A stretch of 64,000 nt of DNA from an uncultured Alphaproteobacteria bacterium (GTDB taxonomy: Bacteria > Pseudomonadota > Alphaproteobacteria > HIMB59 > GCA-002718135): the NCBI GenBank assembly GCA_902602515.1, contig CACKRG010000005.1, positions 1,245-65,244 on the forward strand, in the 5' to 3' direction. Under the pieces are notes generated by a model that worked only from the letters and a program-made list of their open reading frames with translations, was not told the origin of the DNA and did no database searches. The position numbers and the translations under genes are program-made. Shown piece after piece: positions 54,539 to 55,431 of the stretch; the first letter of the stretch is position 1, and every line of letters begins with the position of its first letter.

Positions 54539-54552
54539 TGGGGCGTTCTGTT
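54539..54552. repeat. distal copy of the ssrA 3'-end 14-mer (attL/attR-like)
   Basis: TGGGGCGTTCTGTT is identical to 55076-55089. It lies 22 nt upstream of the rhodanese start codon. Confidence 0.8.
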
Positions 54553-54598
54553 TCCTCAACTAACTTGCCCAAGTCGCAGTATACAATGATTTTCTGCG

Positions 54599-54666
54599 TC
54601 TGTGTGCTTTTTCTGTGTGCTCTGATTTTGTGTTTTTGATGAATTTGCGACTTTTGTCTGTGTGCT
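54599..54666 (+). repeat. three direct copies of (T)CTGTGTGCT
   Basis: Copies at 54600-54608, 54613-54621 and 54658-54666. An 8-bp inverted repeat, AAGTCGCA (54571-78) and TGCGACTT (54646-53), brackets the first two. Confidence 0.85.
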
Positions 54667-54724
54667 ATCTTAAAATAGATGTAATTATTATGTAAAATAT
54701 TAATTAAAAATAGGGAGAATTAAA

Positions 54725-54940
54725 ATGACTATAGACCAATATACAAAGTTTTTACTTACGTTGATTGCAGTTGGCATACTTGGACTCAACTTTCATCTTT
54801 ATAAGGGTAGTATCATTAAGAATGCGTTTGCAGCAAACGAACAAATACATAAAATTGCGATTTGCAACGAGCAAGGAACAAAATGTGCAGGTGTTTCTGA
54901 AAATGGAAATCATTTTAGAATAATAGTAACACCACGATGA
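54725..54940 (+). CDS. hypothetical small membrane-anchored protein (71 aa)
   Basis: A strong AGGGAG Shine-Dalgarno lies 8 nt upstream of the ATG. There is one N-terminal TM helix (FLLTLIAVGILGLNF) and a ~40-aa tail with two Cys (CNEQGTKC). I recognise no family. Confidence 0.5.
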   Translation: MTIDQYTKFLLTLIAVGILGLNFHLYKGSIIKNAFAANEQIHKIAICNEQGTKCAGVSENGNHFRIIVTPR

Positions 54941-54996
54941 TTAATTAATTTCAATACGATTCATCACATAGAAAATGGGAACCTTTTGATTTTTAT

Positions 54997-55028
54997 CTGT
55001 GTGCTTTCTGTGTGCTCAACTGTGTGCT
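54997..55028 (+). repeat. three further direct copies of CTGTGTGCT
   Basis: Copies at 54997-55005, 55008-55016 and 55020-55028, spaced 11-12 nt apart and in the same orientation as the first trio. Confidence 0.85.
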
Positions 55029-55075
55029 CTTTAATTTTACAAAAACAAGAGGAAGCAAAGGGAATTTATAAAAGT

Positions 55076-55324
55076 GGGGCGTTCTGTTGCTCGGTGCCCC
55101 TGACCGCGCTCACCTAGAATCTAGGCAGCAAGTGCTAATCTATTATCGTTAGCGTTTATAAAATAGCCCGATAACGGTGGTACAATGCCGGATAAAGTCT
55201 TTGTCTTTCAATTACCGTCGATCCTATTTCGTCCCCATATTTATGGTGGAGACGCCGGGTACCGCCCCCGGGTCCGAATAACTTATTTCACAAAGCATTT
55301 ATTATCTTAGTTGATAAATCAACA
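55076..55324 (-). ncRNA. ssrA: two-piece (circularly permuted) tmRNA: acceptor piece about 55245-55324, 7-nt spacer, coding piece 55076-55237
   Basis: On the minus strand the order is ...UAUUCGGAC, the T arm [CCGGG]GGCGGUA[CCCGG], then CGUCUCC-ACCA, then UAAAUAU, then GGGGACGAAAUAGGAUCGACGG.... Acceptor pairing GGGGACG/CGUCUCC includes a G3-U wobble, the AlaRS identity element. The tag ORF GCT AAC GAT AAT AGA TTA GCA CTT GCT GCC TAG encodes ANDNRLALAA*. The CCA end precedes the GGGG 5' end, which is the alphaproteobacterial permuted arrangement. The 5' end of the acceptor piece is uncertain. Confidence 0.85.
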
Positions 55325-55330
55325 TAATAA

Positions 55331-55336
55331 TTATAC
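55331..55336 (-). promoter_or_regulatory. possible -10 hexamer (TATAAT on the minus strand) for ssrA
   Basis: The minus strand reads GGGGTATAATTATT about 80-90 nt upstream of the CCA end. No clear -35 is visible. Confidence 0.3.
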
Positions 55337-55431
55337 CCCAAACAAGCGTTCCATAAAAGATTTGTCTTAAATTATATTATTTAATTAAAATAATTGTTAC
55401 AATTTAATTAAAAAAAATAGATAAAAAACTT

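Follow-up and report, generated by a model that had tools for sequence, protein, structure and literature searches.

Six short direct repeats as putative arm-type integrase sites on an integrase-less cassette at the tmRNA gene of an uncultured alphaproteobacterium

What role could six copies of a 9-nucleotide (nt) sequence play when they stand in two trios around a single small open reading frame (ORF), next to the gene for transfer-messenger RNA (tmRNA)? The question is raised by a 64,000-nt stretch of DNA (termed the window herein) from an uncultured alphaproteobacterium of the HIMB59 lineage (GenBank assembly GCA_902602515.1, contig CACKRG010000005.1, positions 1,245 to 65,244 of the forward strand), in which the sequence CTGTGTGCT occurs three times on each side of an ORF beside ssrA, the tmRNA gene. 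Integrases of the lambda type are well known to bind arm-type sites by means of an N-terminal domain, examples being the sites P1, P2, and P'1-3 of lambda attP and the N-domain of the Tn916 integrase with its end repeats. We interpret the six (T)CTGTGTGCT copies as putative arm-type sites, located on the arms of a cassette at ssrA that encodes no integrase itself, to which a tyrosine integrase would bind through its N-terminal domain, and we assign this reading a probability of roughly 0.7, judged from sequence comparisons.

The 9-mer CTGTGTGCT starts at positions 54600, 54613, 54658, 54997, 55008, and 55020, always on the plus strand. An earlier note on this DNA had described these six copies and had seen no others in the window; its count and positions are exact, and the genome-wide count is likewise six, all inside the cassette (source assembly of 34 contigs and 1,431,626 bp, with 29% G+C and 86.5% complete). 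By shuffling, 0.11 copies are expected in the window, and 0 of 100 shuffles reached 6. The 9-mer is therefore no generic repeat, which the note had considered as a possible objection to its reading; with 6 copies in 1.43 Mb, confined to one cassette, it does not qualify as a dispersed repeat of the repetitive extragenic palindromic (REP) or miniature inverted-repeat transposable element (MITE) kind either. Five of the six copies in the assembly belong to the 10-mer TCTGTGTGCT. We number these decamers by arm, all on the plus strand: L1 (54599 to 54608, 47 nt past the core sequence described below), L2 (54612 to 54621, 13 nt past L1), and L3 (54657 to 54666, with GCGACTTTTG directly before it) to the left of the ORF, and R1 (54996 to 55005), R2 (55007 to 55016, 11 nt past R1), and R3 (55019 to 55028, 12 nt past R2) to the right. 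R3 reads ACTGTGTGCT, and its CTGTGTGCT begins 56 nt before the second core. The spacing of mostly 11 to 13 nt that the note had given for neighboring copies agrees with the measured start-to-start distances, which are 13 and 45 nt for the left copies and 11 and 12 nt for the right ones. A 22-nt direct repeat with 86% identity (54649 to 54670, GACTTTTGTCTGTGTGCT.., and 54988 to 55009, GATTTTTATCTGTGTGCT..) takes in the third copy of CTGTGTGCT on the left and the first on the right and brackets the ORF. As all six copies are perfect, either the cassette is young or selection acts on it.

The tmRNA gene is a circularly permuted (two-piece) alphaproteobacterial ssrA on the minus strand (55073 to 55362; Rfam RF01849, 227 bits, E = 6.7e-66), also detected by ARAGORN with the tag peptide ANDNRLALAA. 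Its last 13 bases, in reverse complement GGGGCGTTCTGTT, have only two copies in the genome, both reading on the plus strand: the proximal core at 55076 to 55088, which is the genuine 3' end of ssrA (attR side), and the distal core at 54540 to 54552, a duplicate of that end (attL-side crossover region). Since the 13-mer of the ssrA 3' end occurs twice and nowhere else, the 536 bp from the start of one copy to the start of the other resemble an insert made by site-specific recombination. The two att-like 14-mers to which the earlier note had drawn attention are TGGGGCGTTCTGTT at 54539 to 54552 and 55075 to 55088, with this 13-mer as their inner part. The left copies of CTGTGTGCT lie 47 to 105 nt inside the distal core and the right copies 56 to 79 nt before the proximal core, in one orientation; there are thus several copies of the same motif on both arms (3 + 3), away from the core that is shared with the target, as is characteristic of arm-type sites. 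With att sites at both of its ends and no recombination genes of its own, the cassette has the makeup of a cis-mobilizable element (CIME), and the tmRNA gene is its apparent integration target.

By alignment, the left arm of the cassette (54553 to 54680, plus strand) consists of TCCT..GCCC, AAGTCGCAG, two decamers, TTTTTGATGAATTTGCGACTT, and the third decamer, and the right arm (54971 to 55075, plus strand) of GAAAATGGGAAC.., three decamers, and TTTACAAAAACAAGAGGAAGCAAAGGGAA..AAAGT. The sequence that now follows ssrA, with the T-run behind its terminal hairpin, is supplied by the right arm. We call this pair of arms type A. The scaffold is present in 18 of 187 genomes of the order, which belong to three genera and two families (70 to 86% identity for the left arm), and in eight metagenome contigs. 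Candidate arms from genomes and metagenomes were aligned, 34 of them left arms, of which about 30 are type A, and 47 of them right arms, of which about three-quarters are type A. Type-A left arms have the order core, TCCT..GCCC, AAGTCGCAG, two decamers, TTTTTGAyGAATTTGCGAC, and third decamer, and type-A right arms have the order two to four decamers, TTTACAAAAAyAAGAGGAAGCAAAGG.., and core. In this alignment the places of the decamers are fixed and their sequence depends on the cassette, with TCTGTGTGCT, AGTGTGTGCA, ACTGTATGCA, AGTGTATGCA, AGTGTCTGCT, AGTGTCTGCA, AGTGCGTGCT, and ACTCTATGCA as variants, and arms of other scaffolds have motifs of their own at analogous places (ACGCGTGA-like, CTTCGTAG, GTGTGTCA, and GTGTGTAGT). 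The 9-mer of the window itself recurs in the left arm of a genome from another genus (G133; arm identity, 86%) and in the metagenome contigs L190, L191, L194, and L195, in these loci either in both arms or in the left one; the right arms of L190, L194, and L195 are near-identical to that of the window. The earlier note had tied its interpretation to conservation at this locus, and relatives do keep the arm scaffold and the positions of the repeats.

In an excised circle, the right arm, the core, and the left arm would together form an attP of about 240 bp. Because integration splits such a site, the two arms of one cassette are predicted to agree, and agreement is what the cassettes show. A GC-containing 9-mer is common to both arms in 29 of 54 cassettes, compared with 5 of 29 pairs taken across a junction (right arm and next left arm; Fisher P = 0.002) and 9.7% of random arm pairs from different loci. 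For the decamers, we compared the type-A cassettes of >300 bp with decamers in both arms (n = 19): the majority decamers are identical between the arms in 12 of them, where 4.1 are expected by shuffled pairing (P ~1e-5), with the drawback for our reading that some matched cassettes may be orthologous and the counts not fully independent.

Further evidence comes from relatives that do have an integrase gene. In or beside the arrays of cassettes at ssrA in 98 genomes, a tyrosine recombinase was found in only one, G093, whose array includes a 3.4-kb cassette with ArsR, an ArsP-type permease, and an integrase gene that adjoins the right arm; AACGGCACA is repeated in both arms of this cassette. The G093 integrase (L198 7494-8509, G093:C6) is frameshifted in an A-run, and metagenomes have intact relatives of 336 amino acids, one of which, P0001, is 94% identical to it. 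A search with the read-through protein yielded 445 relatives in ocean metagenomes, several of which are named Pelagibacteraceae integrases by their source. Integrase relatives were also sought in IMG/VR, with none found, and in GTDB genomes, with only two close ones. P0001 and another relative, P0036 (59% identical), directly adjoin ssrA-folA-thyA. These integrases are 60 to 94% identical over most of their length and diverge sharply in their first ~30 residues. Among the 12 integrase/arm pairs that we read, proteins with identical or near-identical N-domains share a repeat, and those whose N-domains differ have different repeats, the rest of the protein being 60 to 90% identical. P0001/G093 and P0005, which have one N-domain on different bodies, have the arm repeat AAACGGCACA, and P0003 and P0013, which again share one N-domain, have GACGCGTA. 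The repeats of the other integrases are GGATCGCACA (P0010), ATTACGCG (P0014), TTACGCTCA (P0024), CGCCACA (P0018), a TGCGACT-like motif (P0036), GCTTCGGCA (L234), AGTGCACGCA (P0029), and ACTGTACGCA / AGTGCACGCG (P0023). P0023 and P0029 are close to type A in their repeats: their N-domains have the strand sequence RNH(H/Q)SISK(T/S)F in common, and the repeats, which face the core in the orientation seen in the window, are 1 to 2 bases off type-A decamers such as ACTGTATGCA and AGTGCGTGCT. The covariation of repeat and N-domain holds for the integrase-bearing relatives only. AlphaFold predicts a three-stranded antiparallel sheet followed by a helix for residues 1 to 56 (predicted local distance difference test score [pLDDT] of ~90 over residues 1 to 40), and the best Pfam match is PF14657 (Arm DNA-binding domain) for 6 of the 12 N-terminal pieces (best E, 0.001) and AP2 for one. 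An arm-binding fold of the integrase N-domain is plausible on this model.

Some of the integrase-bearing relatives are found as free elements. P0003 (82% identical to the G093 protein) is encoded on contigs of 5.8 to 5.9 kb from four samples (L203 to L206; ENA/TARA) that are mutual circular permutations, and a 127-nt terminal overlap in L203 gives a circular element of 5.81 kb with genes for Int and a 719-amino-acid DUF5906 protein and with small ORFs. The free attP of this element has two tandem copies of ATGACGCGTAA, ~60 nt, the core, one further copy at +28, and two more at ~+135, and its left side is element DNA, not ssrA. P0005, P0010, P0014, and P0024 have free attP sites of the same layout. 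These autonomous, ssrA-targeting members have the same core as the window, analogous arms of other scaffolds with repeats on both sides of the core, and an int gene that starts 20 to 40 nt past the right-arm repeats. In free attP sites of type C (L215, L216, L218, and L223), the left arm ends with a second GC(T/C)CGGTG after the distal repeats, GC(T/C)CGGTG being the sequence that follows the core in ssrA.

We propose that the cassette of the window entered the 3' end of the tmRNA gene by recombination at the 13-bp core and that an integrase of the ssrA-targeting family, or a related one, may have inserted it after being supplied in trans. By spanning the distance from arm repeats to core in the fashion of lambda Int, integrase molecules would bring about synapsis with ssrA, and the right arm would restore the T-run behind the terminal hairpin of ssrA; right arms always end in ..AAAAGT, which, read on the tmRNA strand, gives the T-run after the hairpin. 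Because the window cassette has no integrase, it would move only in trans, by a cognate integrase, or else be a recent fossil. The preference of the earlier note for arm-type sites over iterons or a repressor operator is supported at the level of predicted sites, with integrase and excisionase sites left undivided.

Several observations weigh against assigning the repeats to an integrase. No integrase gene was found beside type-A arms or TCTGTGTGCT in the 187 genomes of the order, IMG/VR, a phage collection, and one metagenome scan, and the two tyrosine recombinases of the genome itself are of other kinds. The PF14657 and AP2 matches are under the curated thresholds, a search of the N-domain fold against PDB with Foldseek gave nothing significant (best E, 0.5), and a sequence profile search of the N-domain against PDB gave no significant match. 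Arms are mismatched in 7 of the 19 type-A cassettes compared, which deletion or recombination between neighboring cassettes can explain. Lastly, the type-A arms have a second motif, TGCGACTT, which, as far as its pattern of conservation goes, could be the integrase site and the decamers accessory, or vice versa.

In the window, this second motif forms the 8-bp inverted repeat that the earlier note had seen around the first two copies of CTGTGTGCT: an inverted copy, AAGTCGCA, at 54571 to 54578 (plus strand) is invariant in most type-A arms, and the direct copy, TGCGACTT, is at 54646 to 54653 (plus strand). The half-site AAGTCGCA is not uncommon, as the genome contains 13 of them. An RNA structure formed by the AAGTCGCA/TGCGACTT pair was considered and rejected; changes in relatives are one-sided and uncompensated. 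An unlikely alternative that draws on the second motif is that an accessory recombination protein, be it an excisionase/recombination directionality factor or another architectural protein, recognizes the decamers and that the integrase uses the invariant TGCGACTT. Type-A arms keep three TGCGACTT-type sites, in two orientations, across all decamer variants, these sites resemble the arm repeat beside the P0036-type integrase, and the integrase-bearing relative L200 has an HTH_17 excisionase-like gene, all of which would suit such a division of labor. However, Xis sites of lambda-type systems are found in one arm only, whereas the repeats here are in both; the repeat tracks the integrase N-domain in the integrase-bearing relatives; and integrase-less cassettes cannot encode an accessory protein specific for their decamer variant.

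Less probable still is an array of operators for a regulator, which would act on a left-arm promoter of the cargo and, in autonomous elements, on a right-arm promoter of int. L3 does lie just upstream of a weak promoter-like match (54670 to 54698) and of the ribosome-binding site and ATG of the cargo ORF, the right-arm repeats of integrase-bearing relatives are 20 to 40 nt upstream of the int start codon, and cargo ORFs of relatives run from the left to the right arm in 68 of 84 cases. Promoter-like matches are, however, no more common in the region than in shuffles (7 versus 4.5), and a pure operator would account neither for repeats to the left and right of the core nor for agreement between arms of one cassette instead of between arms that meet at a junction. 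Operators would also be compatible with autoregulation by the integrase and are thus not truly exclusive of arm-type sites. We give hardly any credence to iterons of a small replicon origin or functionless tandem repeats formed by slippage from one ancestral block, for which the phased direct repeats, the contiguous blocks of 4 to 5 copies in two empty cassettes (L195, 197 bp; L067, 152 bp), the DUF5906 primase-like protein of integrase-bearing relatives, and a left/right agreement that could partly reflect common descent might speak, since the window cassette has no rep gene, 9 to 10 bp is short for iterons, L1 and L2 are identical to L3 despite the 45 nt of distance with unique conserved sequence between them, the repeats of relatives bracket the core beside int and not the replication (DUF5906) gene, and covariation with the N-domain is unexpected for iterons and slippage alike.

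Cassettes bounded by the same core are widespread in relatives. The exact core is present in 145 of the 187 genomes, and ~57 of these hold 2 to 6 copies, always on the same strand and almost always on a single contig; the reversed control pattern gave 0. The ~35 arrays that we read in genomes and metagenome contigs comprise 59 cassettes, which range from 120 to 3676 bp. As judged from these arrays, the insert of the window, which comes from a SAR11-type marine bacterium, is evidently a member of a cassette family that is found stacked at ssrA in Pelagibacterales-type genomes. Its own cargo is an ORF of 71 amino acids (54725 to 54940, plus strand), oriented from the left arm to the right arm and predicted to contain one hydrophobic helix. 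It is the sole ORF of plausible size in this cassette and belongs to no Pfam family, and neither the rest of the genome nor any of the loci retrieved contains a homologue. The cassette is flanked by a rhodanese-like gene at the left and, past ssrA, by folA-thyA at the right, and close relatives have differing cassettes between identical rhodanese/ssrA flanks. The cargo of relatives includes small exported/membrane proteins, trypsin-like proteases, DUF805, Sel1, methyltransferases, and EEP nucleases, as well as HNH, GNAT, PEBP, HAD hydrolase, and bactofilin proteins; among the 39 largest cargo proteins of relatives, 0 are a recombinase, an excisionase, or a transposase. In several genomes of the window's genus, the rhodanese/ssrA site holds a cassette of ~800 bp that we call type D (L016, L018, L020, and L021), whose core is the variant GGGGCGTTCTGTA and whose two arms each have CTTCGTAG repeats; where its ORFs were read (L025, L034, and L198), type D has a conserved ORF of 173 to 175 amino acids on the minus strand. 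"Empty" cassettes of 120 to 197 bp look like deletions between direct repeats of the 22-nt type (L195 55-252, 197 bp; L067 4621-4773, 152 bp). One locus, L026 5131-7529 (G046:C5), is nested, with the order left ACTGTATGCA, right AGTGTCTGCT, core, left AGTGTCTGCT, right ACTGTATGCA, an arm order that is not a product of simple serial integration.

The sites on these cassettes are of a known kind, in an unusually small form. As in lambda-type systems, short repeats lie tens of base pairs from a short core, on both arms and about one helical turn apart, within an attP of ~240 bp, and the related integrases have a predicted small N-terminal domain with a three-stranded sheet and an int gene adjoining one arm. 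Unlike these systems, the cassette of the window is devoid of an integrase, its target is a two-piece tmRNA gene, at the 3' end of the coding piece, and the cassette family has many interchangeable pairs of N-domain and repeat on an otherwise conserved integrase body. With integron cassettes, the arrays share promoter-proximal, mostly single-gene units in the same orientation that have no recombinase of their own, but they have neither attC-type imperfect palindromes nor a resident IntI, and their boundaries are copies of the ssrA 3' end and asymmetric arms with direct repeats.

Islands at ssrA are known from Dehalococcoides, in which about half of the tandem ssrA-specific islands have no integration module and have been proposed to be moved in cis or trans (McMurdie et al. 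2011, PMC3146451). Like the cassette of the window, these islands are targeted to ssrA; unlike it, they are on a ~10-kb scale, depend on the serine recombinase DsiB, and have no described arm repeats (PMC3146451). The present cassettes measure 0.12 to 3.7 kb and have putative specificity repeats on their arms, and the integrases related to them are tyrosine recombinases. Excerpts of three further reports describe small integrase-bearing satellites of Pelagibacter, the virion-encapsidated integrative mobilizable elements (VEIMEs) (Eppley et al. 2022, PMC9618062), tycheposons of Prochlorococcus that use tmRNA (bioRxiv 10.1101/2020.12.28.424599), and flexible islands of SAR11 bounded by tRNA/tmRNA, including one tmRNA-bounded SAR11 island (PMC11796062). 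As far as these excerpts go, the likeness lies in small elements with a tyrosine integrase, in oligotrophic marine bacteria, at tRNA/tmRNA targets, and in cargo, among which HNH endonucleases and serine proteases are found both there and in the present arrays. The same passages of PMC9618062, bioRxiv 10.1101/2020.12.28.424599, and PMC11796062 contain no description of the arm architecture, of integrase-less mini-cassettes, or of a pairing of N-domain and repeat, and the cassette of the window, unlike VEIMEs, tycheposons, and SAR11 islands, has none of their hallmark genes. What is added here is the recognition of the decamers as probable arm repeats of a cassette family, the matching of left and right arms, and the N-domain covariation in autonomous relatives.

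No bacterial group in the ocean is more abundant than SAR11, and SAR11-type organisms are widely described as being without mobile elements. Variation in the gene content of SAR11 is well documented; according to an excerpt of a recent preprint, the mechanism behind it is unresolved, with "canonical mobility functions almost absent" (bioRxiv 10.64898/2026.10.07.757358). The locus described here offers concrete footprints of site-specific recombination: att-bounded cassettes, recognizable arm sites, an integrase family, and a circular element in ocean metagenomes. The pairs of N-domain and arm repeat are natural specificity variants and could explain which cassettes can pass from one lineage to another. 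We tentatively suggest, as a possibility that goes well beyond the reading of the repeats, that the ssrA 3' end of SAR11-type bacteria might be a population-wide platform for gene capture, with interchangeable 10-bp labels on both arms of integrase-less mini-cassettes, each of which would be read by the swappable N-domain of a different trans-acting integrase on small circular satellites. If this is true, orthogonal pairs of integrase and arm site would decide who moves which cassette. For genome annotation, the repeats mark cassette boundaries that gene callers overlook.

Other candidate origins and movers of the cassette were tried and rejected. A phage origin was set aside, since blastn and tblastn searches of 50,697 phage records, with the cassette and with its ORF as queries, gave chance matches or none. 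Type-A arm patterns had no match in IMG/VR; matches there to two adjacent 9-mers were unrelated tandem repeats on contigs of other composition, and matches to the core were not accepted as attP, being chance matches or parts of phage-borne tmRNA genes. Such tmRNA genes, of the alpha type and with the same 3' 13-mer, are present on the IMG/VR phage contigs L188, L130, L144, L162, L182, and L158 (31 to 37% G+C), on which phage genes surround the tmRNA gene, ribonucleotide reductase genes adjoin it, and no integrase is beside it. Integron-like mechanisms and those that resemble Xer or integrative mobile elements exploiting Xer (IMEX) were dismissed in view of the asymmetry of the arms, of a core that does not resemble dif, and of arrays that have no resident recombinase at their flanks. 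The integrases of G133, G135, G034, and G099 were rejected as movers, as none of them adjoins ssrA. Nor were the two tyrosine recombinases of the genome itself retained. One is an integrase of 314 amino acids on contig C2 that belongs to a family of tRNA-Gly islands and has no CTGTGTGCT nearby. This accessory integrase (G000:C2:114692-115633; L041 1015-1959) has an arm-binding-like N terminus and no tRNA gene within 10 kb, and copies that are 79% and 72% identical to it, in G032 and G051, respectively, lie beside duplicated tRNA-Gly(GCC) genes that are ~6 kb apart. The other, of 352 amino acids (C10), is a conserved, Xer-like core gene. The window's genus has one conserved atypical tyrosine recombinase of 352 to 365 amino acids (G000:C10:27132-27713; L042 1060-2118) and no XerC/XerD pair, and the sister genus has an Xer-like pair of 329 and 286 amino acids.

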